Shown one piece after another: positions 25,587 through 58,769 of a stretch of DNA of 64,000 nt (position 1 is the first letter of the stretch; each line of letters starts with the position of its first letter). Location: NCBI GenBank assembly GCA_964450405.1, contig CAYVCQ010000010.1:69610-133609 (forward strand), read 5' to 3'. The position numbers and the translations under genes are program-made. Source of the stretch: an uncultured Leptospirales bacterium. Lineage in GTDB: Bacteria > Spirochaetota > UBA4802 > UBA5550. The notes below the pieces were generated by a model. That model saw only the letters and a list, made by a program, of their open reading frames with translations. It did no database searches and was not told the origin of the DNA.

Positions 25587-27161
25587 ATGAAAGAAGATTC
25601 TTCAAAGATTAAGCATTCTGCAGATAAGCCTGCACATAAAAAAATCAGATTCGGGATAAGTCTTAAGTTTTCTCTTGCGATCATTGCCCTTGTATCTGTT
25701 ATTATATTAACCATTGCAGTATTTATTGTATACAGGGAGAGCGGTCTTTTTAAAGAACAGGTTTTTAATTTTACTAAAAGGGAGATTGTTCATCTTGGGA
25801 ATACCGCTCAGCAGACTATAGGCTATGAAGAACTAACTCTTTCAGATGCAGTAAATGAATTGAAGAAAATTGACTATTACAAATATGTTTTTGTTCTGGG
25901 GAGTAATAATGAAGTGCTATATTACTTTGACAGAAGAGGGCCGGAGGGTGATGTAAAGCATGAAGTCAGAAAACAATTCAACGATTCGATAGTAAGAAAT
26001 CTTGATAATAGAACTGATCATGACTCTATTGATATCCTTGAGAACAAAGATGCTGCATCAAAAGGGGCGATTTTCGATTTTTCTAAAGTCGTCTACAACA
26101 GAGCAGATAGTAAGAAAAAATCAGGTGTTGTAATTATAGGAATGTCGGATATAATAATCCGTAATGAAATTGCAAATATTAAGCGTCTTATAATGTTTAT
26201 TTTCCTCGGCTACATGGTTATCTCCACAATCGGAGCAGTTATCCTATCACTTATCATTATCAGACCGATTAAAAAAATATCATATGGTGCGTCGGTAATC
26301 GGGAAGGGGGATTTTTCTTATAGGATAGAAGTAAACAGTTCTGATGAATTGGGGGTGCTTGCCTCGGAATTCAATCAGATGACGGAGATGATTCAGGATT
26401 CGAAGGAAAAGGAGATTGAATCACGGATTATGAATGAACAGCTGGAGATTGCCCGGGATATTCAGGAAGGGCTTAATCCAATGGGTTATTACAATAAAAA
26501 AGGGATACAGATAAAGGGTAATACAAAAGCAGCTAAAGGGGTAGGAGGGGATTATTTCGATTACATAGATATTGATGAAAACAGAGTATGTGCACTCATT
26601 AGTGACGTATCTGGTAAAGGTGTACCGGCATCTCTGGTAATGGTTATGATTCGAACCGTTTTTACATCATATATTACAAGAAAGGATATTGACTGTGCAA
26701 GTGTTGTGAAGGCGATTAATGATTCTCTCAGTGCAGACTTCGCCATAGATAAATTTGCCACGCTGTTTTTTATGATTTATAACAGGGAAACAGAGGAACT
26801 GTCATTTTCAAATGCAGGTCATGGTCCGCTTTTCTGCTACAGAGCTGCTGAGAATGTCTGCACCAGAACATCACTTGACGGGGTTCCAATTGGTATTATG
26901 GATGAAGTGGATTATAAACAGGCTAAGGTTAAGCTGCATCCGGGAGATATGGTTGTTCTTTATACTGATGGTATTACGGAAATGAGGAATAGTTCCAAAG
27001 AGGAATACGGATTGGGGAGAGTCCATAAGTTGATGATGGAAAATCACCATTTAAGTGCCGAGGATTTTCTTGCGCTTCTTATTAGTGAAGTGGAAGTATT
27101 CCGTGGGGAAACTCCTCCTCATGATGATACTACGGCAATGGTATTTAAACGTGATAAATAA
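25587..27161 (+). CDS. Membrane sensor with HAMP and a PP2C-type Ser/Thr phosphatase domain (RsbU/SpoIIE family)
   Basis: Two TM helices flank a periplasmic domain. HAMP-like linker. C-terminal SpoIIE signature (GVGGDYFDYI ... LISDVSGKGVPASLVMV ... LYTDGITE ... HDDTTAMVFK). Confidence 0.8.
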   Translation: MKEDSSKIKHSADKPAHKKIRFGISLKFSLAIIALVSVIILTIAVFIVYRESGLFKEQVFNFTKREIVHLGNTAQQTIGYEELTLSDAVNELKKIDYYKYVFVLGSNNEVLYYFDRRGPEGDVKHEVRKQFNDSIVRNLDNRTDHDSIDILENKDAASKGAIFDFSKVVYNRADSKKKSGVVIIGMSDIIIRNEIANIKRLIMFIFLGYMVISTIGAVILSLIIIRPIKKISYGASVIGKGDFSYRIEVNSSDELGVLASEFNQMTEMIQDSKEKEIESRIMNEQLEIARDIQEGLNPMGYYNKKGIQIKGNTKAAKGVGGDYFDYIDIDENRVCALISDVSGKGVPASLVMVMIRTVFTSYITRKDIDCASVVKAINDSLSADFAIDKFATLFFMIYNRETEELSFSNAGHGPLFCYRAAENVCTRTSLDGVPIGIMDEVDYKQAKVKLHPGDMVVLYTDGITEMRNSSKEEYGLGRVHKLMMENHHLSAEDFLALLISEVEVFRGETPPHDDTTAMVFKRDK

Positions 27162-27302: not shown

Positions 27303-27626
27303 TTACAACAGTTCATCTTCTGAGTCATAAATTGTAAAAAATTTATCAAGAGTAGCCAGTTTTAAAATGTTCAAAACATCATCGTGTATGTTCATAAGAG
27401 CAAATTTGCCATTATGAGCTTTCATTTTTTTCATGCCTGCAACAAGCGCACCTATACCGGATGAATCCATATAGTTCACTTTTTTCATGTCAACAATAAC
27501 ACTATTATGCTGTCCATCGGTTATGCTGAAAAGGGCTTTTTTTAATTCACTGACATTATATAGATCGACTTCGCCGCTTACGTCGATTATTTTATGTTCA
27601 CTAAAGTCTCTAAATTCGATGTTCAC
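27303..27626 (-). CDS. STAS-domain anti-sigma-factor antagonist (RsbV/SpoIIAA family)
   Basis: 107 aa with the STAS consensus, including the phosphorylatable Ser in the YMDSSGIG motif. It is a paralog of the gene at 58422-58769. Confidence 0.85.
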   Translation of the reverse strand: MNIEFRDFSEHKIIDVSGEVDLYNVSELKKALFSITDGQHNSVIVDMKKVNYMDSSGIGALVAGMKKMKAHNGKFALMNIHDDVLNILKLATLDKFFTIYDSEDELL

Positions 27627-27814: not shown

Positions 27815-29182
27815 TTATTTAATGTCAATAAATAATTTATCGATAAATCCGGAAAGATCAAGGAAATTATTAACTTCTTTCATTTCTTTACAGTAGTGTC
27901 CATAAATTGAAGCAATGCTGTCATTCCAGTCCCAGAGATGTTTTTTATCGGGATTAAGCCAGAAAACATTTTTTGTTTTATCATGAATTTTCTGAAATGA
28001 ATTGAGACCCGGATCGTTGTCATTATTTCTTGCATCTCCCAGTATAAGAACGGAAGTTTTTTTTGTCAATGAATCACTGTGATTTTCGACAAACTGATCG
28101 AAACATCTTCCGTAATTGCTTCCCCATCCGTAGGTAAAATTAGCATCAGTAAACATCGAATTTATTGCTCTTTCCGGATCCATTTCTCTGAACAGATCGG
28201 TTATTTCCACCATATTACTTATAAACGCAAAGGTTCTAACCTTGGAAAAAAGACTCTGAAGGCTATATGTAAGGAGAAGCATAAAACGTGAATACTGGTT
28301 AACTGATCTTGAAACGTCCACCATTACAACCAGCTGCGGGCGGTCTATTTTCTTAGTTTTAAAAAAAAGTTTAAATGGGACTCCGCCATATTGTAAATTT
28401 GTACGGAAAGTACGCTTAATATCTATTCCGCCATGTTTAACCCTTTTTTTTCTCAGAGAGATTCTGTTTTTCAGTTTCTGTCCGAATCTTTTAATTATCT
28501 CTCTCATCTCCTTTACTTCCTGAGGAGACAACTGGTAGATAAACTTATTCAGAAGAAAATCCTCTCTGTTCTTAAGTGTCTTACCAATATTTCTTTTTGA
28601 AACTTTCAGCTTTACAAGACTTTTAATAAGTGCAAGAAGATCCTCATTGCTTCTCTGGTCAGGCTCTCCATCTTCACTCTCTGAGTAATATGATCCTGCA
28701 GCTCCACCTTTAGACCGGAAGATTCCCATTCCCTCTCCTCCGCCTGAAGCATCTGATTCGGGAAGGTCATCGAGAAACATCTGCATAATTTCATCTGCGG
28801 ATTTCTCTAACAATATTGCCGGATCGAGCGACTCGATAAATTTATCAAGCTGAGAGTCTATTTCATTTATCAGATTACCGGGAACTTTATCGGCAAACTT
28901 CTGGAGGTCATCGCTGTCCATTCCGTCGAGGAACCTCTCGCGTCTGCTGAAGTATTCTTCGAAGCATCTGTCAAATACAGGAATGTCGGTGTAATCTTTA
29001 ACAAGTGTAGTTTTGAGAGTCTGTCTGAATATGACTTTGTCTTGAAGATCTATCTCTGTTATGGCCTTAAACACAGCAATAACTTCATCTGCAGAAATTG
29101 TAACATTCGCATCTCTTAAAATTTCTATAAATTCAAAGAGTTTGTCAGATATATAACTATGATTAATCATTTCGTTTGTCAT
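27815..29182 (-). CDS. VWA-domain protein of the CoxE/MoxR-partner type
   Basis: 455 aa. C-terminal von Willebrand A fold with a MIDAS-like DVSRS motif (VVMVDVSRSV). The N-terminal helical region is typical of CoxE-like partners of MoxR ATPases. It lies downstream of the MoxR gene on the same strand. Confidence 0.65.
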   Translation of the reverse strand: MTNEMINHSYISDKLFEFIEILRDANVTISADEVIAVFKAITEIDLQDKVIFRQTLKTTLVKDYTDIPVFDRCFEEYFSRRERFLDGMDSDDLQKFADKVPGNLINEIDSQLDKFIESLDPAILLEKSADEIMQMFLDDLPESDASGGGEGMGIFRSKGGAAGSYYSESEDGEPDQRSNEDLLALIKSLVKLKVSKRNIGKTLKNREDFLLNKFIYQLSPQEVKEMREIIKRFGQKLKNRISLRKKRVKHGGIDIKRTFRTNLQYGGVPFKLFFKTKKIDRPQLVVMVDVSRSVNQYSRFMLLLTYSLQSLFSKVRTFAFISNMVEITDLFREMDPERAINSMFTDANFTYGWGSNYGRCFDQFVENHSDSLTKKTSVLILGDARNNDNDPGLNSFQKIHDKTKNVFWLNPDKKHLWDWNDSIASIYGHYCKEMKEVNNFLDLSGFIDKLFIDIK

Positions 29183-29261
29183 TGTATTTTCAGTAGTAAT
29201 CCCTAAACTTTTTTATAATAGAAAAATCTCTATTCGGCACTGATTCATAAGTATAATCATT

Positions 29262-29364
29262 GTCATTCCGGCTGCAGTGAAACGAAATGCCGGAATCTCA
29301 TACTACAGATTCAATCAGGAGATTCCGGTATTTGCAAGAATTGAAGCAGCAAAACCGGAATGAC
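29262..29364. mobile_element. MITE-like element, copy 2 (103 bp), same GTCATTCCGG / CCGGAATGAC termini as copy 1
   Basis: Seen directly in the sequence in the 239-bp spacer between the MoxR and VWA genes. It is co-linear with copy 1 but lacks a ~55-bp internal segment. Confidence 0.6.
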
Positions 29365-29421
29365 AAATGTTTAAAATGCAAACTTTTAGACAACTCCTGT
29401 AAAATCTTTTATGAATTCAAA

Positions 29422-30330
29422 TCAGTTAAGGAACAGCTCTTTGGACTGGGATACTGCAAGCTGTATATCCTTCTCATACTTTAGAATAAAGTTCAGTGTC
29501 TCCATCGCTATGGCCGGATCGAGATCCTGGTACCCGAGTATAACAAGCGCTTTTGCCCAGTCGAGAGTTTCGCTTATGCTCGGTTCTTTTTTCAGCTGGA
29601 GTTTTCTAATTCTCTGAACAGTTTCAACAATCTGTCTTATCATTTTAGGTCCGCTTTCAGGTACTTTTAATGATACAATTTTTTCCTCAAGCTCGATTGT
29701 GGGGTAATCTATATAGAGATGAAGACATCTTCTCTTCAATGCATCGGACATTTCTCTCTGGCTGTTTGATGTGAGGAATACAAAGGGTTTTACATCAGTC
29801 TTAAAAGTTCCAAGTTCAGGAATTGTTACCTGGAAATCAGAGAGAACTTCAAGTAGAAACGCCTCGAATTCGGAATCAGATTTATCTATTTCATCGATAA
29901 GAAGTACAGATCTTCTGTTGTTGGTTATCGATTTTAAAATCGGCCGTGGAATAAGAAAGTTTTCCGAGAAGAATACATCCTCGGTTGATGTAAGTTTGGC
30001 AATGGCACCCTTAAGAGTCTGTTCCGAGCCCATGATCTCCGACAGTTTATCTTTTAATATCTGAGTGTAAAGGAGCTGTTTGGCATACTCCCACTCATAA
30101 AGGGCTTTTGATTCATCCAGTCCTTCATAACACTGCATTCTGATTAAATCGATGTTAAGGGCAGAGGCGATGCATTTGGCAAGTTCTGTTTTTCCAACAC
30201 CGGCCGGTCCTTCTACCAGTACCGGTCTCTCCAGCTTCATTGCGAGATATACGGTAGTGGCGATCTCTTTGGAGGCGATATATTGTACTTTTTCAAGTTC
30301 TTTAATTGTTTCATCTACACTTTTAAACAT
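29422..30330 (-). CDS. MoxR-family AAA+ ATPase (CoxD-like)
   Basis: Walker A (LVEGPAGVGKTELAK), Walker B (LLIDEIDKSD), an AAA_5-type architecture, about 300 aa. Confidence 0.8.
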   Translation of the reverse strand: MFKSVDETIKELEKVQYIASKEIATTVYLAMKLERPVLVEGPAGVGKTELAKCIASALNIDLIRMQCYEGLDESKALYEWEYAKQLLYTQILKDKLSEIMGSEQTLKGAIAKLTSTEDVFFSENFLIPRPILKSITNNRRSVLLIDEIDKSDSEFEAFLLEVLSDFQVTIPELGTFKTDVKPFVFLTSNSQREMSDALKRRCLHLYIDYPTIELEEKIVSLKVPESGPKMIRQIVETVQRIRKLQLKKEPSISETLDWAKALVILGYQDLDPAIAMETLNFILKYEKDIQLAVSQSKELFLN

Positions 30331-31226: not shown

Positions 31227-32741
31227 ATGAAGAAAAAAATTCTAATGATCTATCCCGAATTTCCCGCAACTTACTGGAGCTACAAATATTCAATGCCATT
31301 TGTCGGGAAAAAAGCTGTAATGCCGCCGCTCGGGCTGCTTACGATTGCATCAATGCTCCCGGACAGCTTCGAAGTAACTCTGATTGATATGAATACTTCT
31401 CAGATTTCCATCCGTGACATAGAGAATTCAGATATGGTATTTATATCGGCGATGATAATCCAGAAAGATTCTTTTAATCGAGTGATAGAGATGTGTAATG
31501 AATGCGGTGTGACAGTAGTGGCCGGTGGACCATACCCGACGTCTTCATATCAAATTATAGATGGTGTTGATCATTTTATACTTAATGAAGCTGAAATAAC
31601 ACTCCCTATGTTTCTCCGTGATTATGAAAATGGTATTCCAGAGAGAGTTTATGAAGATAAAACCAAACCTGATCTTGCGCTGACTCCGCCTCCGAGGTTT
31701 GATCTTATTGATGTTTCTGATTATCTGAATATGACTCTTCAGTTTTCTAGAGGATGTCCCTTTAACTGTGAGTTTTGCGATATTATTGAAATGTTCGGTA
31801 GGAATCCGCGCACAAAAGTCCCTGATCAGTTTATAGGAGAAATGGAGATAGTCTACAATTCCGGATTCCGTGGCCCTATATTTATTGTTGATGATAATTT
31901 TATCGGGAACAAAAAAGAGGTTAAAAAACTGCTGGAACTTATAATATTGTGGCAGGAGATTCACAAGTTTCCATTTACATTCTTTACCGAAGCGAGTGTA
32001 AACCTTGCGGAGGATGACGAGCTTATGGGGTTGATGGTACAGGCAAATTTTGATATGGTGTTTGTCGGCATAGAGACTCCGGATACGGCGACGTTAACAG
32101 TGACACACAAAAATCAGAATGCAGCGGTGGATCTTTTTGAAAGTATAAAAAAAATTCAGAACAGCGGGCTTGAGGTTTGTGGAGGATTTATAATTGGTTT
32201 TGATACAGATCCGGATAATATCTTTGATCTTCAGATTAATTTTATACAGAGATCGGGAATACCAATTGCGATGATAGGTCTGCTGATTGCTTTACCGAGG
32301 ACTCAGCTATATCGCCGGCTTCAAAGTGAGCACAGACTGACATCTGAAACTAACGGGAATAATACACACCAGATGACGATGAATTTCAAAACTGTGATGC
32401 CTGCGGGAAAAATAGTAGAGGGTTATAAACGTGTGATTGCAGAACTCTATTCACCGCAAAAATTTTTTGAACGAAGCCTGGTTCTGATCAGGAGGCTTTC
32501 GAAAAATAAAAGCAGGAGCACTAAACTTTACTGGAGTGATATACGTGCTCTGATGCTCTCACTTTTAAGGCAGAGTTTCAGCAGATACGGATACTGGTAT
32601 CTGAGGTTTGTTATAAAATCGATACGTTATAATTACAGGCGGTTCCCTCAGGCTATTGGTATGGCTGTTATGGGTTATCACTTTTTTAAAATAACAAGGG
32701 AGATTCTTTCTAAAGAAAATCGTTTAGCTGGAAATATGTAG
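31227..32741 (+). CDS. B12-binding domain-containing radical SAM protein (class B, DUF4070-type C-terminus)
   Basis: N-terminal cobalamin-binding Rossmann region (KILMIYPEF ... PPLGLLTIASML). Radical SAM motif CPFNCEFCD (CxxxCxxC). About 500 aa, typical of this family. Confidence 0.8.
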   Translation: MKKKILMIYPEFPATYWSYKYSMPFVGKKAVMPPLGLLTIASMLPDSFEVTLIDMNTSQISIRDIENSDMVFISAMIIQKDSFNRVIEMCNECGVTVVAGGPYPTSSYQIIDGVDHFILNEAEITLPMFLRDYENGIPERVYEDKTKPDLALTPPPRFDLIDVSDYLNMTLQFSRGCPFNCEFCDIIEMFGRNPRTKVPDQFIGEMEIVYNSGFRGPIFIVDDNFIGNKKEVKKLLELIILWQEIHKFPFTFFTEASVNLAEDDELMGLMVQANFDMVFVGIETPDTATLTVTHKNQNAAVDLFESIKKIQNSGLEVCGGFIIGFDTDPDNIFDLQINFIQRSGIPIAMIGLLIALPRTQLYRRLQSEHRLTSETNGNNTHQMTMNFKTVMPAGKIVEGYKRVIAELYSPQKFFERSLVLIRRLSKNKSRSTKLYWSDIRALMLSLLRQSFSRYGYWYLRFVIKSIRYNYRRFPQAIGMAVMGYHFFKITREILSKENRLAGNM

Positions 32742-33020: not shown

Positions 33021-33878
33021 ATGTTTGAATCCGCCTTGTATAAACCGCTTTTGGCTGTACTTTCGATAATACTGGTTTTCACTTTTTTAAAATGTGCTTC
33101 TGGTAGAAAAAATGTACGAACGCTGCAGTGTTCGGATAATTCAACACTTTCCCTCACAGTTGAAAAAGTATTTGTAGAACTCTCGTATCAGAGTGTCTAT
33201 GATTTGTCATATAAAAAAAATTCTGATAAAACTCCGCGAATGGTGACCGGTAATATCTCAGTTCTTCCAACTGCAAAAAGATATAGGGACATGATCAGTG
33301 TTAGAGATTTTTTACCGGGAAAACCGAAATCCGTATTTCAGCATCACTATTTATTTCCGTCAGAATTTACATCGGATGAATTTAACGAGATATGCGGCTG
33401 TTTTGAAAAAAATAAAAATTCATTTCCTGAACTGAAAAATAAGGTAGGAGCGCTAATCCATGGAGATTATAACTCTTTCCGTGAAGCCTTTAAACTTCCT
33501 GATGGATTCTATATTGTGACGGAGTATAATGGGAACCTCACCATAGTAAAAGATCCCTCCCGCGAGGCGATGACAATACCCGCTGAACTCAAAAACTTCG
33601 CTCATATCGGATATTTCGATGACAGCAGCAGACTCCATCTTCGAAAAGGGAGGATTGTCTCCGGTGAATTCAAAGGACTTTTCGAAAGGCCTGTTAAACA
33701 GGTGTTATATGTTACAGAAGACGGGAAGGAGGATTACACCGGAGAGGTTGATACAACTTTCTGCAATATCTTATATAAAGAGAATGTAACAGGTGTAAAT
33801 AGTGAATATCTTCTTTCTGCAGTAAATGATAAGGGTGTAAAAATCGGCTCAGTGTTTATGACGGGCGGTAAGGAATAG
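33021..33878 (+). CDS. Hypothetical secreted protein (285 aa)
   Basis: N-terminal signal/TM segment. No recognisable motifs. Confidence 0.4.
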   Translation: MFESALYKPLLAVLSIILVFTFLKCASGRKNVRTLQCSDNSTLSLTVEKVFVELSYQSVYDLSYKKNSDKTPRMVTGNISVLPTAKRYRDMISVRDFLPGKPKSVFQHHYLFPSEFTSDEFNEICGCFEKNKNSFPELKNKVGALIHGDYNSFREAFKLPDGFYIVTEYNGNLTIVKDPSREAMTIPAELKNFAHIGYFDDSSRLHLRKGRIVSGEFKGLFERPVKQVLYVTEDGKEDYTGEVDTTFCNILYKENVTGVNSEYLLSAVNDKGVKIGSVFMTGGKE

Positions 33879-33991: not shown

Positions 33992-36900
33992 ATGCAGGGA
34001 ATTCAAGACATTCTTAATATTTTTATGATTCCGCCCATCCTATTTTTAATCACAGGAGTTTCTGTCGGTGTTTTTTCCTTCATAAAGGGAAAGCGTCAGT
34101 TGGAGACTGTTTTATTCGCTCTTATATGTGTCTGGTATTCGCTTCTTATGCCTGTCTTTATATCTCATCACATCTTTAAGGGGAATATATCTCTCATAAT
34201 GAAAATAGAGAGATGTATTCATGTTCTCTACGTATACGGCCCTGCAATTTTAATACTTTTCTCGCATTCACTGGTTAATAAAAAAAACAGAATCATAGAG
34301 ATAGGTGCTTTTATTTTTGCTTTTATCATTTCTCTTTTTGTTTTTACTGATTATTACTTTTCTGGAATTTGGATATACAATTGGGGGTACATAGCCAAGG
34401 GGGGGAATGTATTTCAAATATTCGGCCTATTTGCCATGAGTGCCATTGTATATTCTTTTGTGTTATCTATAAAAAAATTAAAAACTGATATTGATATTCA
34501 AACCCGTCTTAAAATAAAATTTATTATGTTTGCCGTTTTGGCTATAGGTATTCTGACATTAGGGAATATGCCTGCTTTGAATGGAATTAATATTTATCCG
34601 CCCGGGAACTTTGCCTTTATACCGATGCTCTTCATGGCGTGGGGAATTTTCCGGCATGACGCAATAAAGATTAATCTTTATACAAAGCGGAGAATTGCCG
34701 GAACTATTGTGCGTATATTTATTACCCTGATGCTTTTAGCTGCAATACCCATCGGCTTCTGGGCCATTGGAAGTTATAGTTTTAGTCATATTATTGATAA
34801 AACTTTACATTATGGAATTCCTCCTTTCATATCTTTTCTGTGTTGTGTTTTTTTATCTTATCTCTCTCTGCGATTGGGGGATTACCGCAAAGAATCAATT
34901 ATCTTCAGTCTTCTGATGTTAGTTTATGCACTATTAAGTATCGATATTTATCTCAACTGTATTATTACGGATCCTGTCATCGGGCTTCGGGTGAGCAGGT
35001 TCAGTCATCCTTTTGTTGTTTTTCTTCCGGCACTGGGGATGCACCTGATACGCGTGGTCACAGGGCGTCGTTCTGTGAACAGATTACTTTGTTTGAATTA
35101 TATCATATCAATATTTCTTTTAGCTTTTTCGCAATCTAACTATTATCTGCAGGGGATGAATGTATATTCATGGGGATTATTTGCAAAGAAGGCAATTCTG
35201 TTTGATGTAATGAGCGTCGTTTCAGCTTCAACACTCATATACAATATTGTGATTCTTATCAGTGCTTATCGGCATAGCGGCAACCGTTTTTTCAGACACC
35301 GTTTTCTTTTTCTTCTTATCGGTTTTGCAAGTACTGCTATTTTGTCGCTTGGGAATATACCTGCGATGAACGGGTACGGATTTTATCCTGTAGGCAATTT
35401 CATTTTTATTCCGGTAACATTTTTCGCCATAGCGCTTTTCAGGCACAACATCCCTGAGCTGATCCGTTTTGGAGGATCTTTTTCATATTTCGGAGTAATG
35501 TCAGGCGGAGTTTTTGCTGCTGTTTATTTACTTTCTGTAAAACACTCTGATAAATATTTACCCTTATATACCGGACTTTCAATTTTCAGTATTTTGATTT
35601 TTGATTTTTTTCTCCGCCGGCTTCGTGATGGGATATCGGGCAGACATATTAAACATTTACAGATTGCTCTGGAGAATCTTAGTGATAAGCTTTCCAGAGT
35701 CCGGACTCTGGATGATATTGCCGGATGCATTTCACAGTCATTCTTTTATGATCTGGATTGCGGTGAATGCTCTGTTCTGATCCACCAGGAAAACACAGGG
35801 GAATATAAAGGGAACAAGTTCATGAACAGAAGGCATGAATTTATTTCCGGCAAGAATTTAGATGAACGTTTATCATTTATTACAATTCCTTCCGATCATC
35901 CGCTTCTCGGTTATGTTGAGACTAAGTATTCTCCCGTTAAACAGGAGAATATTGAGTTCTGGCTTCTCAATAACGAGAGGGCCGTGGAGATGAATGATCC
36001 ACTCCGGAGGGCCGAAATAATTCTCCCGGTTTTTTTCGAGAACCGTCTCTCTGCTATAATACTGCTTGGTGTGAAAAGTTCAGGTTCGATGTATTCCAGT
36101 TATGAAACAGCATTTCTCTATCAGCTTGGAATTATTCTTGGTCCGCATATTGAAAATGCAGGAATTCTTCAGAGACTTGAAAATACTCTGGAGGAACGGA
36201 CAGGAAAACTGCGGGATTCGGAAAAAAAATACAGGACACTGCTTCAGACCAACAACGTGGGATTTTTCGAAATTGATTTAAGCGGAAAAATAGTATCCTG
36301 CAACGATGTTGTTCTTTCCTTTACCGGGTATACTCAAGAGGAATTCATAGGTATGAGCTTCTTAAAAATAATGACTCCGGAAATTTCTAAAAAGATTTTT
36401 TCCGAATATCATCGTGTTTTTTTAAAAGAAGTCGGACTGGGATCAATTGAGCATGAAGTAATAAGAAAAGATGGTTCATTAGGATTTGTTGAAACAACAG
36501 TATCTGCGATAATAGATAAATCAGGTAATGTTACAGGGTTCAGTACAATTGCAGTTGATGTTTCCAACAGGAAATCAGTTGAAAATGCCTTGAGGGAAAG
36601 TGAAAAAAAATACCGTCACTTTATTGAAAACGCAAATGAGATAATATATAAGTCTGACTGGCGCGGTAACTTCATTTACTCAAATCCGGCCTGTCAGAAA
36701 ATGGTGGAATATAGCAATGATGAAATCAGTCATATGAATTATCTTGATTTTATTCCACCCGAAAACCGCGAAACTGAATATGAGTTTTACAAAAATCAGT
36801 TAAAAAATAAAATTGATGAAACACATCGTGAACTTTCTTTAATAACTAAATCCGGAAAGATTTTATGGGTTGAGCAGGATGTAAGATCTGTAAAAGATGA

Positions 36901-39346
36901 AAACGGACGAATTGTCGAATTCGACAGCATTGTACACGATATAACAGAGAGAAAAGCCGCTGAGGATGCCTTGCGTGAAAGTGAAATGCGCTATCAGCAG
37001 CTCATGGAGAATGTAAGTGATTGTGTTTTTATCTGCAAGCTTGATGGTCATTTCAAATATATTAATCATGCAATTACCCGGATATTCGGCATGAGTCAGA
37101 GCGATTTAATAGGGGCACACTTTTTATCAATCGTACATCCGGATTATCGTGATAAGCAGATTGAATTTTATCGAAAGCAGGTGATGGAAAATATCGAAAT
37201 AACCCGTTGTGAATTTCCCGTTCTAATGAAAAACGGTGAAATTGTTTGGGTTGGTCAGACTGTCAGAATGATAAAAAATAATGAGGGAGAAATAGAATTT
37301 TACGGTATAGCCCGGGATATTTCCAATCTTAAAAAAGCTGAGGATGCACGCCGTGATCTGGAGGAGGCGAAAACCCGTTTTTTCGCAAACATCTCCCACG
37401 AAATACGAACACCGCTAACTCTTATGCTCGGGCCGATTGAATCTGTCCTTCAGGGGGACTATGGAAAAGAGATCGGGAATGATTTTTTTAAAAGTCTTCA
37501 TCGTAATACATTGAGTCTATTAAAACTTGTGAACAATCTCCTCGATTTTTCTAAAATTGAAGCCGGTAAAATGGTTTTGAATGTACAGGAAGGGGATATG
37601 GTCTATTTTGCAAATCATTATATATCCAGTATTCAGCAGGCAGGCAAATTAAAAAATATTAATCTGAATTTGAAATCATCTGCCGATTCGATTATGATCT
37701 TCTTTGATCCTGAAAGGCTGGATAAAGTTTTTATGAATCTTCTTTCAAATGCGTTAAAGTTTACCGGAGAGGGCGGAACAATTTCTATCAATCTTATTGA
37801 TGATGAGGATTATTGTCGAATAGTAGTGTCCGACACCGGAGAGGGAATACCTGAGAACAGCATGGAGGTAATATTCGACCGCTTCAGTCAGGCGGATACA
37901 ACTTCTACCAGGAAGTATGAAGGTACAGGTATAGGTCTTGCACTGGTGAAGGAACTAGTGGAACTGCACGGAGGATCGATCACTCTGGAAAGCCGATATA
38001 TCGAAAAATACCCCGATGATCACGGGTCAGTCTTTACTGTGAGTCTGCCGAAGGGTATAGCTCACCTTGAAAACAGGGCATATGTTAAATTTTCCGAAAA
38101 GAGCAATCTTGATGATTATGTAAAAGATTACCGGTTAATTGGAATCCGCGAGATTGAATCATCAGGAAATTCTGAACCGGTTCCTTCTGCCGGGGTGCAG
38201 GTCGATGAAATGTTAAACTCCGGTATGAAAAAAACTGTACTGGTTGTTGATGACAATGAGGACATGCGGAATTTCATGAAGGTACTTCTCCGGAAGCATT
38301 ACCGTATAATACTTGCAGTGAATGGAGAGGAAGGGATCAGCATCGCCAGAAGTCAGAGACCTGATCTCATTCTAACAGATGTTATGATGCCTGTAATGAA
38401 CGGTTTTGAGATGACATCGATAATAAAGAACGATGACGATCTAAAAACAATCCCTGTAATAATGCTCACGGCAGATACCGAACTTATGAATAAAGTAACA
38501 GGACTTGAAAATGGAGCTGATGATTACCTGCATAAACCTTTTAACTCAATGGAGCTTATCACGCGCATCTCTTCACTTATGAAAAATTATGAATATCAGC
38601 AGATCATAAGCCGCAGGAATTCAGATATTGAAAGCGAACTTGAAGTGGCCCGACAGCTGCAGCATCGTCTTCTACCGCTATCGATGCCTGAAATTTCCGG
38701 ATATAATGAATATGCAGTCTATATTCCAATGGACAAAATCGGCGGAGATTTTTACGATATCGAAAATCGTGATGGATTTCTTAATCTGTTTATTGCCGAT
38801 GTCTCCGGGCATGGTCTTCCGGGTGCTTTTCTGGCAACAGTGACAAAAATTGCTCTTGATAATATTGCTGTCCGCACCGCATCAAACAAAGTCCTCTATC
38901 TACTAAATAATGTTATTCTCCGGCATACTGTGAAGAGTCATTTTGTTACAGCATTTTTTGCAATGATTGACATCAGTACAAATGTTATGCGGTACGCAAA
39001 TGCAGGTCACACACCTTCGATTCTTTATCGTAAAAAAAATGATGAATTAATTGAGCTTCGTACCAAGGGAAAACCTCTGGGCTGGTTTAATGATATTCAT
39101 ATTGAAGAAAAAACAATTCAGCTTGAATCCGGTGATAGAATAATATTCTATACAGACGGTATTACAGAGTGCAGCAATTCTTCTGATGAGCTTTATGAGG
39201 ATGAGCGATTTATAAAAGCAATTAAAGATTATTCCGGATTGTCTGCCGAAATGTTTTCAAAAGAACTCATGAAGGAGCTTGAGTTATTTAACGGCGGCAG
39301 CTCATTCGATGATGATATTACAATGATGGTAATTGACGTACTATGA
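33992..39346 (+). CDS. Giant multidomain signalling protein: duplicated polytopic membrane module, GAF-like region, about 4 PAS/PAC domains, histidine kinase (HisKA+HATPase_c), receiver domain, and a C-terminal PP2C (SpoIIE) phosphatase
   Basis: About 14 N-terminal TM helices with an internal duplication (LGNMPALNGINIYPPGNFAFIPMLFMAWGIFRH vs LGNIPAMNGYGFYPVGNFIFIPVTFFAIALFRH). HisKA H-box (FFANISHEIRTPL). HATPase G-boxes (DTGEGIP, GTGIGL). REC (LVVDDNEDMRNF ... DLILTDVMMPVMNGFE). PP2C (GGDFYDI ... IADVSGHGLPGAF ... FYTDGITE). Confidence 0.85.
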   Translation: MQGIQDILNIFMIPPILFLITGVSVGVFSFIKGKRQLETVLFALICVWYSLLMPVFISHHIFKGNISLIMKIERCIHVLYVYGPAILILFSHSLVNKKNRIIEIGAFIFAFIISLFVFTDYYFSGIWIYNWGYIAKGGNVFQIFGLFAMSAIVYSFVLSIKKLKTDIDIQTRLKIKFIMFAVLAIGILTLGNMPALNGINIYPPGNFAFIPMLFMAWGIFRHDAIKINLYTKRRIAGTIVRIFITLMLLAAIPIGFWAIGSYSFSHIIDKTLHYGIPPFISFLCCVFLSYLSLRLGDYRKESIIFSLLMLVYALLSIDIYLNCIITDPVIGLRVSRFSHPFVVFLPALGMHLIRVVTGRRSVNRLLCLNYIISIFLLAFSQSNYYLQGMNVYSWGLFAKKAILFDVMSVVSASTLIYNIVILISAYRHSGNRFFRHRFLFLLIGFASTAILSLGNIPAMNGYGFYPVGNFIFIPVTFFAIALFRHNIPELIRFGGSFSYFGVMSGGVFAAVYLLSVKHSDKYLPLYTGLSIFSILIFDFFLRRLRDGISGRHIKHLQIALENLSDKLSRVRTLDDIAGCISQSFFYDLDCGECSVLIHQENTGEYKGNKFMNRRHEFISGKNLDERLSFITIPSDHPLLGYVETKYSPVKQENIEFWLLNNERAVEMNDPLRRAEIILPVFFENRLSAIILLGVKSSGSMYSSYETAFLYQLGIILGPHIENAGILQRLENTLEERTGKLRDSEKKYRTLLQTNNVGFFEIDLSGKIVSCNDVVLSFTGYTQEEFIGMSFLKIMTPEISKKIFSEYHRVFLKEVGLGSIEHEVIRKDGSLGFVETTVSAIIDKSGNVTGFSTIAVDVSNRKSVENALRESEKKYRHFIENANEIIYKSDWRGNFIYSNPACQKMVEYSNDEISHMNYLDFIPPENRETEYEFYKNQLKNKIDETHRELSLITKSGKILWVEQDVRSVKDENGRIVEFDSIVHDITERKAAEDALRESEMRYQQLMENVSDCVFICKLDGHFKYINHAITRIFGMSQSDLIGAHFLSIVHPDYRDKQIEFYRKQVMENIEITRCEFPVLMKNGEIVWVGQTVRMIKNNEGEIEFYGIARDISNLKKAEDARRDLEEAKTRFFANISHEIRTPLTLMLGPIESVLQGDYGKEIGNDFFKSLHRNTLSLLKLVNNLLDFSKIEAGKMVLNVQEGDMVYFANHYISSIQQAGKLKNINLNLKSSADSIMIFFDPERLDKVFMNLLSNALKFTGEGGTISINLIDDEDYCRIVVSDTGEGIPENSMEVIFDRFSQADTTSTRKYEGTGIGLALVKELVELHGGSITLESRYIEKYPDDHGSVFTVSLPKGIAHLENRAYVKFSEKSNLDDYVKDYRLIGIREIESSGNSEPVPSAGVQVDEMLNSGMKKTVLVVDDNEDMRNFMKVLLRKHYRIILAVNGEEGISIARSQRPDLILTDVMMPVMNGFEMTSIIKNDDDLKTIPVIMLTADTELMNKVTGLENGADDYLHKPFNSMELITRISSLMKNYEYQQIISRRNSDIESELEVARQLQHRLLPLSMPEISGYNEYAVYIPMDKIGGDFYDIENRDGFLNLFIADVSGHGLPGAFLATVTKIALDNIAVRTASNKVLYLLNNVILRHTVKSHFVTAFFAMIDISTNVMRYANAGHTPSILYRKKNDELIELRTKGKPLGWFNDIHIEEKTIQLESGDRIIFYTDGITECSNSSDELYEDERFIKAIKDYSGLSAEMFSKELMKELELFNGGSSFDDDITMMVIDVL

Positions 39347-39771: not shown

Positions 39772-40692
39772 ATGAAAAAGAAAATTCTGTTTATCAGCTG
39801 TCTGATAATCATTTTTTCGATAATAGGGTTTAACATCTATCAGAAAATACAGAAGTCCAAACGTGCTCCAAGGTCAAACGAGTTTGCCGTAGGTGTACAG
39901 CTTCTAAAAAAGGAAATGGTGGATATTTCTTATGAGTTTAACGGTATTTTAGAGGGAGATCCTCAGGTGAAAGTTTACTCTGATATCACCGGAAAATTTA
40001 TACGTAATGCAGTTTCAGAAGGCGGGTATGTTAATAGGGGCGGTGCTATTGCCTTTATAGACAGGGATATCATCGGGCAGGAATTTCAGCCGGCAATGAT
40101 CGTTTCACCAATCAGTGGAATGGTTAAGAAACTTTACTTCTCGGACCGTGGAGCTGCTGTAAACACAGCTCTACCTATTGCGGAAATTGCCAATACGGAG
40201 AGGGTAAAAGTAGTAGTGAATATAGGTCAGGAGAATATCGGAAAAATCAGAAAAGGAATGCAGGCACGGATATCTCAGGTTTTTGATTCTTCAATAAGTA
40301 TTTATTCATCCGTTTCTTCTGTAACTCCATTTGTAGATAGTGATACTCTTACTGGTTCATTTGAAGTTAAAGCTCCGGGAGTTAAGAGTATGACTATCGG
40401 TTCTTCTGTTACGGTAAGTGTTGTAACCGGAAAAATTAGCGCTTTCATGGTTCCCCTGGGAGCGGTTAATATGGGAATCAATGAGGTATATGTTTTTGTA
40501 AATGACAAAGGTAAAGCGCGTAAGGTCGCTGTTACTCAGGGATATATAAGCAGAGATAAAGTTCAGATATCCGGAGATTTTAAAGAGGGAGATGAGCTTA
40601 TAACTGATGGAAGTTTCAAATTATCAGAAGGATCAAGTGTGAAAATTGTGGGAGATCAGCAGAAAGGTGACGATAAAGGGACGCAGAAATGA
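39772..40692 (+). CDS. RND efflux periplasmic adaptor (membrane fusion protein, HlyD family)
   Basis: N-terminal TM anchor, lipoyl/beta-barrel adaptor architecture. Its stop overlaps the start of the RND pump gene. Confidence 0.7.
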   Translation: MKKKILFISCLIIIFSIIGFNIYQKIQKSKRAPRSNEFAVGVQLLKKEMVDISYEFNGILEGDPQVKVYSDITGKFIRNAVSEGGYVNRGGAIAFIDRDIIGQEFQPAMIVSPISGMVKKLYFSDRGAAVNTALPIAEIANTERVKVVVNIGQENIGKIRKGMQARISQVFDSSISIYSSVSSVTPFVDSDTLTGSFEVKAPGVKSMTIGSSVTVSVVTGKISAFMVPLGAVNMGINEVYVFVNDKGKARKVAVTQGYISRDKVQISGDFKEGDELITDGSFKLSEGSSVKIVGDQQKGDDKGTQK

Positions 40693-43600
40693 ATATAGCT
40701 CAACTTGCAATTAAAAAACCGGTTTTCATTGTGATGATACTTGCTTCGATTATCACTCTCGGTGTTATCGGATATACAAGACTTCCTGTTGATCTTCTTC
40801 CGAATGTCGAATTTCCCACGCTGGTTGTGACAACACAATATCCCGGAGCTTCATCTGCTGAAATTGAAACTCTCATCACAAAACCTCTTGAGAATGCTCT
40901 GGCCAATGTTGAGGGACTGGATACTCTCTCTTCACAATCGCGTGAAGGTGTATCGAGAGTAAATATTACATTCCGGATTGGAGTAGATATTAAATTTGCA
41001 GAGCTTAAGGTTCGTGCCAAGGTCGATCAGGCTAGGCAGAAACTTCCTGACGATGTAACAGATCCGGTAATCAACCGCTTCTCGACAGATGACAGTCCCA
41101 TTATGTTCCTGTCAATTCAGGGGAATAAATCTCTCAGCGATCTGCGTGAAATTCTGGAGAATAATATCCAGCCGAAGATTGAATCTATCAATGGTGTCGG
41201 ATCAATTTCAATTCAGGGCGCTCAGCAGAAAATAATAAAAATTACTGTAAATGGAGATCTTTTAAGGGCGAACGGAATCAGTTATACTCAGATCAAAGAT
41301 GCTATTACCAAAAAAAATGTAAGTATCCCTGTGGGTGACATCAGGCCGATGAGCAAATTCACAACATTGCGGGTCTACGGTAAGGCCGAATCGATAACTG
41401 AAATTGCAGGTAAAACTATTTCAACATCAAGCGGTAAAATTATCAGGATTTCCGATGTTGCGAAAGTTGAAATGTCATCGGTCGATCCCGATACCCGGGC
41501 CCGGGTCAAAAGTGAAAACGCAGTTATGTTCCGTCTTTACAAACAAAGCGGTAGCAATACAGTTGAAGTTTCGAAAGCCTTGCGAAACGAACTTCCGGCA
41601 ATTCAAAAACTTCTTCCGCCTGATGTGAAGATAAAAATTGTAAGTGATACTGCAGATGCAATAAATAGAAGTATTCAGGGTGTACAGCATGATATTCTTT
41701 TAGGAGCATTCCTTTCGATTATTATTGTATGGTTTTTTCTCGGTAATTTCCGTTCAACAATTATTACTGCAGTCGCTCTCCCTACATCTATTCTGGGTGC
41801 ATTCTTTTTTGTGAATGCTGCAGGTTTTTCGATTAATACAATGACACTACTGGCTCTCTCGCTCTCTGTGGGGCTGTTGATAGATGACTCGATTGTCGTG
41901 CGGGAAAATATTTTCAGATATATAGAGCTTGGTGATGATCCGAAGACCGCTGCGGTGAAGGGTACAAACGAGGTCGCCCTTGCGGTTATCTCTACAACGC
42001 TTTCGATTATGGCGGTCTTTATTCCCATCTCATTACTACAGGGTGTTATCGGACAGTTTTTCAAAGAGTTCGGATTTACAATTGCGTTTGCTCTGGGAAT
42101 TTCACTTATAGATGCGTTCACCTCTGCGCCGATGCTCTCCGCCTACTGGTACAGGCATACCGACAAGGCCCATGCAAAGGGGATGAGTCTTTTTTTTATA
42201 AATCTTTCCGGCCAATGGAATACAATTTATGAAAGAATAAATGAATTATATCATAGAGTTCTTCACTGGAGTCTTGATAACAAGAAAATTGTTATGATCC
42301 CGATTATATTCCTTTTCGTTATCTGTATGTATGCATCGCGTTTTATAGGAAGCAACTTTATGTCAAATACAGATTCAGGATCAATCGGATTTGATATTCA
42401 GGCATACCCCGGCGCTTCATTTGATGAGGTAGATCAGTATCTGAAAAAAATAGAAGAATATGTTGCACAACAGAAAGAAGTGGCAGTGTTTTACACTACA
42501 CTTGGCGATCAGGGTCTAATCAATGCCGGAGCGGTTGATATCGAACTAAAACCAATTAAAGATAGAGAAATAACCACGCAGCAGATGATTGCACGGCTCC
42601 GGAAGTTCACAAAGGGCACTCTTGAAAAAAATCTTGTTATCCGGATATCTGAAAAGACAGTGAATATGACTGGAACAGGCGGAGGCGGATCCGGAATTCA
42701 ATTGATTCTTAATGGCTCCGACCTCAAGGTGCTGGATGAACTGGCTCAAAGAGTATTTGCTGTTGTCTCTGCAACGCAGGGTGCAACAGACGCTAATTCA
42801 TCGTCTCAACCCGGAAATCCGGAGATAGTTATCAAACTGGATCCGGTTAAGGCAGAGAAACTCGGATTTAACGAAAATGAACTTGGAACTTCTCTTCGCG
42901 ATCTTATACAGGGCTCAACGATATCAACCTTTACACTTGCTGATAAAGAATATGACATCATCCTGCGTCTGAGAGAAGAAGACCGGAACAGTGTTGAAGA
43001 TATAAAAAATATAATCATCACCGCAAAAAATGGAACAAAACTTCCTCTGTCGGCAATTGCAGACTTTTCGTATTCATCATCACCCGTACGCATTGCCCGT
43101 GAAAACAAACAGCGCATTGTGCGGATCAGCGCGAATATTGCTGATGGATCTTCCATGACCGAAGTCATCAGCAGGATTGACGAAGGCATCTCGAAAAATA
43201 TAGTATTCCCCAATGGATACGGATATTACTACAGCGGACAACAGAAACAATTCGCGGATCTTCAAAAGCAGATTATATTTGCAGTATTCATTGCGCTTAT
43301 ATTTATGTATATGATTCTTGCTTCGCTGTATAACTCTTTTGTTCAGCCGATAGTCCTCATGGCATCGATTCCGCTTGCAATTATCGGATCATATCTGGCA
43401 CTGCTGCTGACAAATGTAGATCTTGATATCTACGGTTATATAGGACTACTGCTTGTTCTGGGACTTGTTGCAAAGAACGCAATTCTACTGATAGACTTTA
43501 CCAACAAGATGCGTGACGATGGGATGACTATACGGGAAGCTCTTCTTCACGCGAGTCCAATCCGGCTTAGACCGATTTTAATGACAAGTTTTGCGATGAT

Positions 43601-43874
43601 TTTCGGGATGCTCCCCCTTGCGCTTGGAATGAATGAAGGATCACGCGGCCGGGAAGCGCTGCCGGTCACTGTAATCGGAGGTATTATAACCTCTACATTC
43701 CTTACACTGATAGTTATACCGGTTCTCTATGAATGGGTTGAAGCAATACTTGAAAAAAGAAAGATCCATGCGGAAATTTCAGATGATGTTATAAGTAATA
43801 TCTATATATCACCTTTGCCTGATTTACCGGAAGAGAAACCGAAACGCAAAAAGAAAAAAAACACCCGGATTTGA
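40689..43874 (+). CDS. RND family efflux transporter permease (AcrB/CzcA-like, 1061 aa)
   Basis: 12-TM architecture with two large periplasmic loops. Conserved AcrB motifs (ALSLSVGLLIDDSIVVREN, LVLGLVAKNAILLIDF). Confidence 0.85.
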   Translation: MNIAQLAIKKPVFIVMILASIITLGVIGYTRLPVDLLPNVEFPTLVVTTQYPGASSAEIETLITKPLENALANVEGLDTLSSQSREGVSRVNITFRIGVDIKFAELKVRAKVDQARQKLPDDVTDPVINRFSTDDSPIMFLSIQGNKSLSDLREILENNIQPKIESINGVGSISIQGAQQKIIKITVNGDLLRANGISYTQIKDAITKKNVSIPVGDIRPMSKFTTLRVYGKAESITEIAGKTISTSSGKIIRISDVAKVEMSSVDPDTRARVKSENAVMFRLYKQSGSNTVEVSKALRNELPAIQKLLPPDVKIKIVSDTADAINRSIQGVQHDILLGAFLSIIIVWFFLGNFRSTIITAVALPTSILGAFFFVNAAGFSINTMTLLALSLSVGLLIDDSIVVRENIFRYIELGDDPKTAAVKGTNEVALAVISTTLSIMAVFIPISLLQGVIGQFFKEFGFTIAFALGISLIDAFTSAPMLSAYWYRHTDKAHAKGMSLFFINLSGQWNTIYERINELYHRVLHWSLDNKKIVMIPIIFLFVICMYASRFIGSNFMSNTDSGSIGFDIQAYPGASFDEVDQYLKKIEEYVAQQKEVAVFYTTLGDQGLINAGAVDIELKPIKDREITTQQMIARLRKFTKGTLEKNLVIRISEKTVNMTGTGGGGSGIQLILNGSDLKVLDELAQRVFAVVSATQGATDANSSSQPGNPEIVIKLDPVKAEKLGFNENELGTSLRDLIQGSTISTFTLADKEYDIILRLREEDRNSVEDIKNIIITAKNGTKLPLSAIADFSYSSSPVRIARENKQRIVRISANIADGSSMTEVISRIDEGISKNIVFPNGYGYYYSGQQKQFADLQKQIIFAVFIALIFMYMILASLYNSFVQPIVLMASIPLAIIGSYLALLLTNVDLDIYGYIGLLLVLGLVAKNAILLIDFTNKMRDDGMTIREALLHASPIRLRPILMTSFAMIFGMLPLALGMNEGSRGREALPVTVIGGIITSTFLTLIVIPVLYEWVEAILEKRKIHAEISDDVISNIYISPLPDLPEEKPKRKKKKNTRI

Positions 43875-43895
43875 TATGCGGCAGGAGAATATTTC

Positions 43896-45254
43896 ATGAA
43901 GAGACTTTATATAACCGCAGCAATATGTTTACTGCCGTTTATTATTCTTACAGCGCAGGATGCCGGAAAGCTGAGCCTGCGTGATGCGATTACTCAGGCA
44001 TTGACCGAGAACAATTCCTATAAAAGCAACAGGTCAAAGGTTGCTGAGTCTCAGGCACAGCTTGACGAAGCATGGGGAGCTCTCTGGCCGGTGCTGGCTT
44101 CTGATGCTTCATATCTTAAATCAGGTGAAGAGTCCGCGTCGGGGACAAAGATTGATTCACAGTACCTTTTAAATATTGTAAATTGTTCAATATCGTTAAA
44201 TCCCGGAACAGTTTATAATTCAATTATGGCAGCACGTGATGAGAGGATCATTGCAGAAAATAATCTGCGGGTTACGCGGGGAGAAATTGAGAAGTCAACA
44301 ATTAAGCTTTTCTACAACCTGATTCTAGCCCGAGAAACAGTGAGGATCCAGACAGAGTCGGCTGATTCTCTGAGGGAAAACTTAAAATTAGTCTCTGCTG
44401 CATATGAACGAGGAAGAGCATCCCGTCTTGATTTTCTTACTGCAAAATTGACCCTGGCAAATTCCGAAACTGATCTTCATAATGCAGAGAGCAGCGCCGA
44501 GACTGCACTGGCAGCACTAAATATTAATCTTGGCAATAGTGTAGATATGGCTATTGTACAGGATGACTCCTTTAAGGAAATTCCATCCGATGAAAAAGAA
44601 ATTATGATGCTCGATCCGGAAAAACGGTCGGCGTTCATAAACACTCTGGCATCTGAATCTTTAAAAAACAGACCGGAGCTTATAATAAAGAGAACTACCG
44701 TAGAGCAGTATAAACATAATGAAGGAATTCAGTCCGCAACGTATCTCTGGCCCTCTTTTTTTGTAAACGGAAAATACAGTAAATCCAGATATAATCCCGA
44801 GTCCGGATTGACTGCTTCGGGCGTCATGAATGAACAATGGACTGATTCATGGTCTGTCGCAATGGGCGCTACTTACAGATGGGGTTCCGTTGTACCATGG
44901 GATGCCTCAAATTCGCGGAAGCGGCAGCAGGAAGAAAAAAAGAAACAGGCACAATATGATCTGGATGACTTTGTGAAACAGATTACCCTTGATGTAATTC
45001 AGAACTACTCAAGTATGAGAGCCGCTTACAGCGCGATAGTTTCTCAGAAGGCTAATGTTATGATTGCAGAAGAGAATATGAAGGCCGCACAGGCGCAGTT
45101 CAGAAATGGTGTAATCGACAATAGTAAACTTCTTGAAGCAAATATTCAGCTTATTAAAACAAGAAGCAATTATATTCAGGCGCTTGTTTCATATTCAATT
45201 GCCAAGTCTTCACTTAATAACATTATCGGGCGTGAATATTTCAATCTGTATTGA
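43896..45254 (+). CDS. TolC-like outer membrane efflux protein
   Basis: Signal peptide. Two-repeat OEP architecture with coiled-coil segments. Final gene of the MFP-RND-OMP operon. Confidence 0.7.
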   Translation: MKRLYITAAICLLPFIILTAQDAGKLSLRDAITQALTENNSYKSNRSKVAESQAQLDEAWGALWPVLASDASYLKSGEESASGTKIDSQYLLNIVNCSISLNPGTVYNSIMAARDERIIAENNLRVTRGEIEKSTIKLFYNLILARETVRIQTESADSLRENLKLVSAAYERGRASRLDFLTAKLTLANSETDLHNAESSAETALAALNINLGNSVDMAIVQDDSFKEIPSDEKEIMMLDPEKRSAFINTLASESLKNRPELIIKRTTVEQYKHNEGIQSATYLWPSFFVNGKYSKSRYNPESGLTASGVMNEQWTDSWSVAMGATYRWGSVVPWDASNSRKRQQEEKKKQAQYDLDDFVKQITLDVIQNYSSMRAAYSAIVSQKANVMIAEENMKAAQAQFRNGVIDNSKLLEANIQLIKTRSNYIQALVSYSIAKSSLNNIIGREYFNLY

Positions 45255-56217: not shown

Positions 56218-56244
56218 AGTGGTTATAGTAACAGGGAGTTTAAT

Positions 56245-58421: not shown

Positions 58422-58769
58422 ATGATCTCTATGGACATAAGTTCCAGAGCAAAAGGGGAGGTCGTCATACTTGATATTTCAGGTGAGATTGATTTGTACA
58501 ATGCGCCCGAGATAAAAGATATTATTAACAAGTTGATTGAACAGAAAAGATATAATGTTGTAATTAATCTTAAAGAAGTAACCTATATCGATTCTTCCGG
58601 CATAGGGGCGCTTATTTCGAGTTTATCAAATCTCAAAAAGTATCAGGGGGGATTGAAAATAATCAATGTTTTTGCCTCCGTACGAAAGGTTTTTGAGCTC
58701 ACAAAGTTGACATCATTTTTTGATATTTATGATAATGAAGATGATTCCGTTAAGGCTTTCCAGCAGTAA
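58422..58769 (+). CDS. STAS-domain anti-sigma-factor antagonist (paralog of 27303-27626)
   Basis: STAS consensus with YIDSSGIGAL. RBS spacing favours the internal ATG at 58431 (MDISSRAKGEVV...) as the true start. Confidence 0.85.
   Translation: MISMDISSRAKGEVVILDISGEIDLYNAPEIKDIINKLIEQKRYNVVINLKEVTYIDSSGIGALISSLSNLKKYQGGLKIINVFASVRKVFELTKLTSFFDIYDNEDDSVKAFQQ

Follow-up and report, generated by a model that had tools for sequence, protein, structure and literature searches.

A Leptospirales membrane protein with tandem HisKA_7TM-like modules, a histidine kinase, a receiver and a PP2C phosphatase domain in one chain

Introduction

Can a single bacterial gene encode a signalling chain that extends from a membrane sensor to the phosphatase that delivers the output? 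This question is raised by an open reading frame (ORF) in a 64,000-nucleotide stretch of DNA from an uncultured Leptospirales bacterium (GenBank assembly GCA_964450405.1, contig CAYVCQ010000010.1, positions 69,610 to 133,609 of the forward strand), hereafter called the window. An initial annotation had proposed that the ORF at 33992..39346 encodes an internally duplicated membrane sensor, a GAF-like segment, four PAS domains, a histidine kinase (HK), a receiver (REC) and an RsbU-type PP2C phosphatase in one polypeptide. We estimate, at a probability of roughly 60%, that the product (the target protein) is a membrane-bound hybrid sensor kinase with its cognate REC-PP2C regulator fused to the C terminus, and that it comprises a whole signalling chain.

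Results

One ORF encodes a sensor, a histidine kinase, a receiver and a phosphatase

The ORF is genuine and runs uninterrupted from ATG to stop (1784 residues). Its N terminus, MQGIQDILNIFMIPP, aligns with the N termini of homologues (MQGIQDILNIF versus MPGITDNLNIF), which supports the start codon. Pfam returned HisKA (E 9e-16), HATPase_c (E 6e-29), Response_reg and SpoIIE/PP2C in that order (Table 1), and the kinase is complete, with an H-box (SHEIRTP at 1135, containing His1136) and N, G1, F and G2 boxes at residues 1249, 1281, 1295 and 1311, respectively. The receiver has D1420/D1421, the phospho-acceptor D1463, T1493 and K1515. The phosphatase that follows it carries GGDFYD (1584), DVSGHG (1603), YTDGI (1720) and DDIT (1774), which we take to be the four Asp-containing metal-binding motifs of bacterial PP2C enzymes. 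The proposed architecture of sensor, kinase, receiver and RsbU-type output in one polypeptide was thus borne out, with all catalytic and phospho-acceptor residues present.

The region between the membrane and the kinase required revision. The PAS stretches were matched by PF00989, PF08447, PF13426, PF08448 and TIGR00229, and Pfam and NCBIfam sensory_box both gave three PAS domains rather than four, with no space for a fourth. The GAF-like segment stood as a fold in the structural model described below and not as a family assignment, as neither GAF nor any other Pfam family matched residues 550-753 at E up to 10.

An ORF of this length could in principle reflect chimeric assembly, or a sequencing error that merged two or more genes, and the corresponding gene of Spirochaetae bacterium HGW-Spirochaetae-5 is indeed called as two ORFs. 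However, full-length orthologues were found in three independent, species-level Spirochaetota/Leptospirales metagenome-assembled genomes, with 58-72% identity over aligned segments and the same domain order in unbroken ORFs. One of them aligns across the entire target protein (Table 1), and further full-length relatives include P0033 (1535 residues, 7 contigs), P0309 and P0312 (both 1784 residues). The split in HGW-Spirochaetae-5 is the likelier artefact: the tail of its first ORF looks like the HisKA region translated out of frame, suggesting a frameshift due either to a sequencing error or to pseudogene formation. We consider an artefactual origin of the target ORF extremely improbable. Furthermore, the HK-REC-PP2C fusion recurs in the orthologues and in more distant relatives. 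Overall, the target protein is an ordinary fused two-component/partner-switching protein, each domain of which comes from a known family.

The C-terminal region resembles stand-alone REC-PP2C response regulators

A search with the last 395 residues gave more than 5,000 relatives at E<=1e-10. Among the 120 relatives listed, most are REC-SpoIIE proteins of 385-400 residues that are 36-43% identical over 93-98% of the query and are named in their sources as RsbU-type phosphoserine phosphatases, and the closest of those listed (42-74% identical) have HATPase_c upstream, as in the target protein. The solved REC-PP2C regulator 3eq2/3f7a likewise matches both domains (E 1.6e-29). REC-PP2C is a very common type of response regulator, represented by RsbY and RsfR, and is here joined to a kinase; the target protein is best read as a kinase and REC-PP2C regulator pair fused into one chain.

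In the RsfS/RsfR/RsfB system of Mycobacterium smegmatis and the RsbK/RsbY/RsbV system of Bacillus cereus, a kinase acts on a REC-PP2C regulator whose substrate is a phosphorylated STAS antagonist (PMC10950880). In the former, phosphatase activity falls when the receiver Asp is phosphorylated (PMC10950880), whereas phosphorylation is activating in the latter (PMC10950880; RsbK also PMC4574943); the sign of receiver control in the target protein is therefore not predictable. The target protein shares with RsbK/RsbY, RsfS/RsfR and 3eq2/3f7a the same receiver-linker-PP2C unit, with the phospho-acceptor Asp and the metal-binding sites intact. It differs from the two kinase-regulator pairs in having both partners on one chain, in using a seven-transmembrane (7TM) array rather than CHASE3/GAF as its sensor and in the absence of STAS or anti-sigma genes next to its gene. 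By analogy with these systems, it is plausible that His-Asp phosphotransfer gates the PP2C domain.

The receiver might alternatively serve as a phosphate sink or inhibitor of the kinase, or as a relay to an external Hpt domain, with the PP2C domain being regulated separately or acting on non-STAS substrates. C-terminal receivers of hybrid kinases often have such roles, and that of RsbK has been proposed to be an intramolecular phosphate sink or an inhibitory domain of the kinase (PMC4574943). The window also encodes a hybrid kinase with an Hpt domain (52810..56217), and the lack of an adjacent STAS gene fits this assignment as well. Yet residues ~1414-1784 (371 residues) align end to end with thousands of stand-alone REC-PP2C regulators (~385-400 residues), in which the receiver is the sole regulatory domain, and a Pfam scan found no Hpt domain within the target protein itself. 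A sink or relay function is, in our judgement, improbable, and we favour the receiver as the regulator of the adjacent phosphatase.

The membrane region consists of two diverged HisKA_7TM-like modules

When residues 1-260 were compared with residues 261-552 by BLASTP using composition-based statistics, 214 residues aligned with 29% identity and 55% positives (E 2e-27), pairing residues 13-223 with 276-486. The internal duplication is therefore a true one and not a hydrophobic low-complexity artefact, and the motif by which it had been noticed sits at residues 190-222 and 453-485. The initial annotation could assign this motif to no named family, a view that did not survive profile searches: residues 1-550 searched as one piece matched Pfam HisKA_7TM (PF16927, 'N-terminal 7TM region of histidine kinase') in two stretches at 35.9 bits (E 9e-9; gathering score, 28.6 bits), and PF16927 matched 13 of 24 aligned module copies from the target protein and its homologues (best E 2e-13). 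In addition, relatives P0001 and P0005 carry precomputed PF16927 annotation, and the NCBI name of one cluster relative is 'histidine kinase N-terminal 7TM domain-containing protein'. On these sequence matches, the membrane module is a divergent branch of HisKA_7TM, a family that the literature searched does no more than list among the sensor domains found in kinases of bacteria and archaea (PMC5847659). Like HisKA_7TM, the module is a seven-helix N-terminal membrane unit ahead of signalling outputs, whereas the target protein has it twice (many relatives thrice), joined by an extra transmembrane (TM) helix.

We modelled residues 1-748 by AlphaFold2 with a 38-sequence alignment, giving a mean predicted local distance difference test score (pLDDT) of 87.1 and a predicted template modelling score (pTM) of 0.77; module 1 alone gave values of 90.6 and 0.85, respectively. 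Each modelled module has seven TM helices, in agreement with the hydropathy peaks; TM4 and TM5 are separated by a beta-hairpin, and the TM6-TM7 loop contains two short helices. Helix 229-259 connects the modules and two more helices follow module 2, giving 17 TM helices in total ahead of an alpha/beta domain (551-747). With 17 TM helices and a cytoplasmic C terminus, the N terminus is predicted to be outside, and both modules would be N-out/C-in because the linker helix brings the chain back outside. Lys and Arg are abundant in the loops that follow TM1, TM3, TM5 and TM7 (for example, KGKR, NKKNR, KKLK...RLKIK and YTKRR), which is consistent with the positive-inside rule.

Structural alignment of the module with the 7TM domains of G protein-coupled receptors (GPCRs) covered ~190-212 of 224 residues at 3.2-4.1 A and 4-13% identity, and a profile of 24 module copies found no sequence match among PDB chains at E up to 10; the likeness to eukaryotic receptors (class C GABA-B, adhesion and class A) is at the level of fold only. 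The target protein differs from GPCRs in that its output is covalently attached enzymatic domains and not G proteins, and in the beta-hairpin between TM4 and TM5. The module fold is not new, because prokaryotic 7TM histidine kinases and diguanylate cyclases with a GPCR-like fold have been reported from large-scale AlphaFold mining (PMC13581589). In joining bacterial 7TM modules to kinase, GGDEF or PP2C outputs, the family also recalls 7TMR-DISM (PF07695), an example being P0236, which carries 7TMR-DISM_7TM and SpoIIE. Kinship with 7TMR-DISM was rejected on an hhalign probability of 0.4% against one member, and Pfam scans found no PF07695, DISMED-type or other extracytoplasmic domain in the target protein.

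Tandem 7TM arrays form a recurring, position-specific input cassette

An exhaustive search of 1.84 billion representatives with the profile from 24 module copies identified 2,471 clusters at E<=1e-3, 719 at 1e-10 and 191 at 1e-30; a word-indexed protein search with the module alignment returned 6 fragments only. On the 175 closest proteins, we mapped domains with a module hidden Markov model and with phmmer queries cut from the target protein and its relatives. One full module was present in 113 of these proteins, two in 33 and three in 22; relative P0100 shows four module matches. A cassette of one to three 7TM modules, two further TM helices and a cytoplasmic GAF-like domain recurs ahead of varied outputs: HK-REC-PP2C (in the target protein, P0033, P0039, P0041, P0088, P0104 and P0106), HK-REC(-REC)-Hpt, GGDEF, adenylate/guanylate cyclase, or PP2C directly. 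Because it is shuffled among outputs, the cassette behaves as an input module. Named relatives with several modules belong to Spirochaetota, candidate division CSSED10-310, the SAR324 cluster, Desulfobacterales and 'Deltaproteobacteria bacterium TL4', and bear automatic names such as 'SpoIIE family protein phosphatase', 'PAS domain S-box protein' and 'diguanylate cyclase'. Two relatives, P0047 (3040 residues) and P0055 (2352 residues), have very long extra N-terminal regions ahead of the array, in which WD40-like repeats and periplasmic-binding-protein-like segments were seen by eye, as was a Ser/Thr-kinase-like start in P0055.

Among 229 aligned module copies, module 1 of the target protein is nearest to the modules of single-module proteins (mean identity 0.33), and module 2 is nearest to the last modules of two- and three-module proteins (0.37-0.38). 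Last modules are 0.32-0.34 identical to each other versus 0.23-0.27 to modules in other positions. Linkers between modules are uniform in length, 72 of 74 falling within 40-69 residues (median 51), with space for one TM helix. Far from being a peculiarity of one protein, the duplication is on this sequence evidence an old, family-wide, position-specific arrangement of one to three modules. We found no description of tandem HisKA_7TM-type arrays in the literature searched. Module 2 is without the HH motif of its single-module relatives (Table 1) and therefore may bind a different ligand, or none.

Conserved columns, defined as those kept in >=55% of the 229 copies, include P14/P15, R74, H77, Y122, G125, W131 and G132, as well as N192, P194, G198, Y202, P203, G205, N206, F207, F209 and P211 in the TM6-TM7 loop, all with equivalents in module 2. 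On the predicted topology, nearly all of the family-wide conserved polar and aromatic residues would lie at or near the outer face, namely the PP that opens TM1, R74/H77 where TM3 begins, the W-G of the TM4-TM5 hairpin and the loop before TM7. These positions bear on an alternative in which the array is an anchor, a scaffold or a reporter of membrane properties while the GAF and PAS domains read chemical signals, a view partly compatible with the mechanism favoured here. No ligand of any HisKA_7TM protein is reported in the literature searched, the modelled outer face consists of short loops and the hairpin only, and four cytoplasmic sensor-type domains lie downstream of the array. Against this, 17 TM helices are more than an anchor needs, the outer-face motifs are conserved position-specifically across copies from several phyla, and the cassette is kept as a unit ahead of many different outputs. 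We regard the anchor or scaffold role as possible though doubtful, and prefer an array that senses at its outer face.

Genomic context of the target gene

The features of the target gene, its neighbours and its orthologues are listed in Table 1. A promoter/terminator scan gave 25 promoter-like sites versus 25.8 expected, including one at 33916-33944, and no terminator-like site 3' of the stop codon of the target gene. We rejected an operon that would include the radical-SAM gene upstream or the RND pump downstream, as these neighbours are not conserved beside the orthologues.

Two STAS genes in the window encode candidate substrates. The shorter product and the HAMP-SpoIIE phosphatase encoded beside it probably form a pair of phosphatase and antagonist that does not involve the target gene. 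The longer one opens a region (58422..61061) that may be a partner-switching output locus, with no RsbW-type kinase visible in it.

Elsewhere in the window, the Hpt-containing hybrid kinase (PAS x3-HisKA-HATPase_c-REC-Hpt, 1135 residues) is directly followed by a 244-residue receiver protein (region 52810..56979), the C-terminal half of which has no family match. A 566-residue protein (17681..19381, -) fuses a Na+/H+ exchanger membrane domain to a PTS EIIA-2 domain and would be a transporter regulated through a phosphotransferase-type domain, and a VWA_CoxE protein (455 residues) lies beside an AAA ATPase (302 residues) at 27815..30330 (-) in a MoxR/CoxD-CoxE-like pairing. No Pfam match was obtained for the products of 15256..17673 (-, 805 residues), 20727..23102 (+, 791 residues) and 12717..14066 (+, 449 residues) or for the 285-residue protein encoded upstream of the target gene.

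Table 1. Features of the target gene and protein, neighbouring genes in the window, and orthologues
Feature	Coordinates	Strand	Residues or size	Remarks
Whole ORF	33992..39346	+		7TM-7TM-GAF-PAS-PAS-PAS-HisKA-HATPase_c-REC-PP2C
7TM module 1	34007..34678	+	6-229	HisKA_7TM-like, 'single-module' subtype, FISHH kept
Module 1 beta-hairpin		+	123-137	Predicted periplasmic, with W131-G132; AlphaFold2 model
Module 1 TM6-TM7 loop motif		+	N192-P-A-x-N-G...Y202-P-x-G-N-F-x-F-x-P211	Sequence
Inter-module linker	34676..34768	+	229-259	Basic cytoplasmic stretch and one extra TM helix
7TM module 2	34796..35467	+	269-492	'Last-module' subtype, IYLNCI replaces FISHH
Module 2 hairpin and loop motif		+	386-400; N455...P474	Counterparts of module 1 features
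Two more TM helices	35474..35638	+	~495-549	Leading to cytoplasm; hydropathy, AlphaFold2 model
GAF-fold domain	35642..36232	+	551-747	Ends in long signalling helix (703-747); model
Three PAS domains	36248..37348	+	~753-860, 873-984, 1000-1119	Pfam, NCBIfam
Histidine kinase core	37367..38053	+	HisKA 1126-1192, HATPase_c 1239-1354	Pfam
Receiver domain	38237..38569	+	1416-1526	Response_reg, E 9e-27 (Pfam)
SpoIIE/RsbU-type PP2C phosphatase	38774..39340	+	1595-1783	SpoIIE, E 1e-45 (Pfam)
HAMP-SpoIIE PP2C phosphatase	25587..27161	+	524 aa	Two TM helices; convergent with 107-aa STAS gene
STAS-domain protein	27303..27626	-	107 aa	Candidate substrate, 6.4 kb upstream of target gene
B12-binding radical SAM protein	31227..32741			Upstream neighbour
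Protein without family	33021..33878	+	285 aa	Immediately upstream of target gene
RND efflux system HlyD/AcrB/OEP	39772..45254			Downstream neighbour
STAS-domain protein	58422..58769	+	115 aa	Candidate substrate, 19 kb downstream of target gene
DUF4398/LysM protein	58804..60030			Between 115-aa STAS and sigma-70 family factor
Sigma-70 family factor	60069..61061			Regions 1.2, 2, 3 and 4; two genes after 115-aa STAS
Orthologue, uncultured Leptospirales bacterium			1809 aa	72% identical over all 1784 residues
Orthologues, two Spirochaetota bacteria			1730 aa and 1666 aa
Split orthologue, HGW-Spirochaetae-5	PGXT01000095.1, 6114..11031		1003 + 626 aa	Two ORFs

Discussion

The domain order, the intact active sites and the recurrence of the cassette and of the fusion were read from the sequences, and the 7TM and GAF folds and the topology logic from the model. 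In the mechanism that we favour, one or both 7TM modules would detect an extracytoplasmic or membrane-borne signal at their outer face, and this signal would pass via the two extra TM helices into the GAF/PAS/signalling-helix stack, where cytoplasmic signals could also be integrated. The relayed signal would set the autophosphorylation of His1136, the phosphoryl group would move from His1136 to Asp1463 within the dimer, and the phosphorylation state of the receiver would switch the adjacent PP2C domain on or off, both directions being documented in the split homologues. The PP2C domain would most likely dephosphorylate Ser/Thr of a STAS anti-sigma-factor antagonist encoded elsewhere, and two-component input would in this way be coupled to partner-switching output with no response regulator as a protein of its own.

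Several points weigh against this reading. Sensing, its transmission, the transfer from His1136 to Asp1463, receiver control of the PP2C domain and the phospho-STAS substrate are all steps that we infer. On the input side, neither membrane half scanned alone matched PF16927, the literature searched names no HisKA_7TM ligand, and module 2 may not bind the ligand of its single-module relatives, or any. On the output side, no STAS or RsbW-like gene adjoins the target gene, the nearer of the two STAS genes adjoins another PP2C phosphatase, and a phmmer search of the window with RsbW and SpoIIAB query sequences detected no anti-sigma kinase. Thus, no linkage of the target gene to genes for a STAS antagonist and an anti-sigma kinase, which would mark a partner-switching system, was found, and the STAS substrate is only inferred because neither STAS gene in the window is adjacent. 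Further, the orthologue loci hold no counterparts of the neighbouring genes; the target gene is therefore a stand-alone unit, and its genomic context does not point to a partner.

A more speculative view, which we think rather unlikely, is that the tandem modules are not redundant copies and form a covalently linked hetero-oligomeric 7TM receptor. The first, middle and last subtypes, each conserved across several bacterial lineages, would then pack against one another, with one module binding the ligand and another transmitting to the GAF/kinase stack, in analogy to the obligate class C GPCR heterodimers (GABA-B). If true, there would be four to six seven-helix bundles per kinase dimer, and the array would be an undescribed bacterial solution to 7TM receptor heteromerisation.

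The output side of the target protein follows known lines. The logic from kinase to receiver to PP2C is established, the STAS partner switch is probably the next step, and fusing the kinase with its regulator merely removes one diffusion step. REC-PP2C regulators and the kinases that feed them are well studied, and public databases already list relatives of the target protein under generic names; the sole unusual feature of the protein, its tandem 7TM array, is a variant of modest novelty. The input side is noteworthy as a widespread, unstudied bacterial 7TM sensor family with a GPCR-like fold and strongly conserved motifs at the predicted outer face, which in several bacterial lineages occurs as arrays of two or three diverged copies that a dedicated linker helix keeps in matching orientation. 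The conserved outer-face motifs are direct targets for mutagenesis, and the cassette, with its kinase, cyclase, GGDEF and PP2C outputs, would suit a reporter system for ligand discovery.

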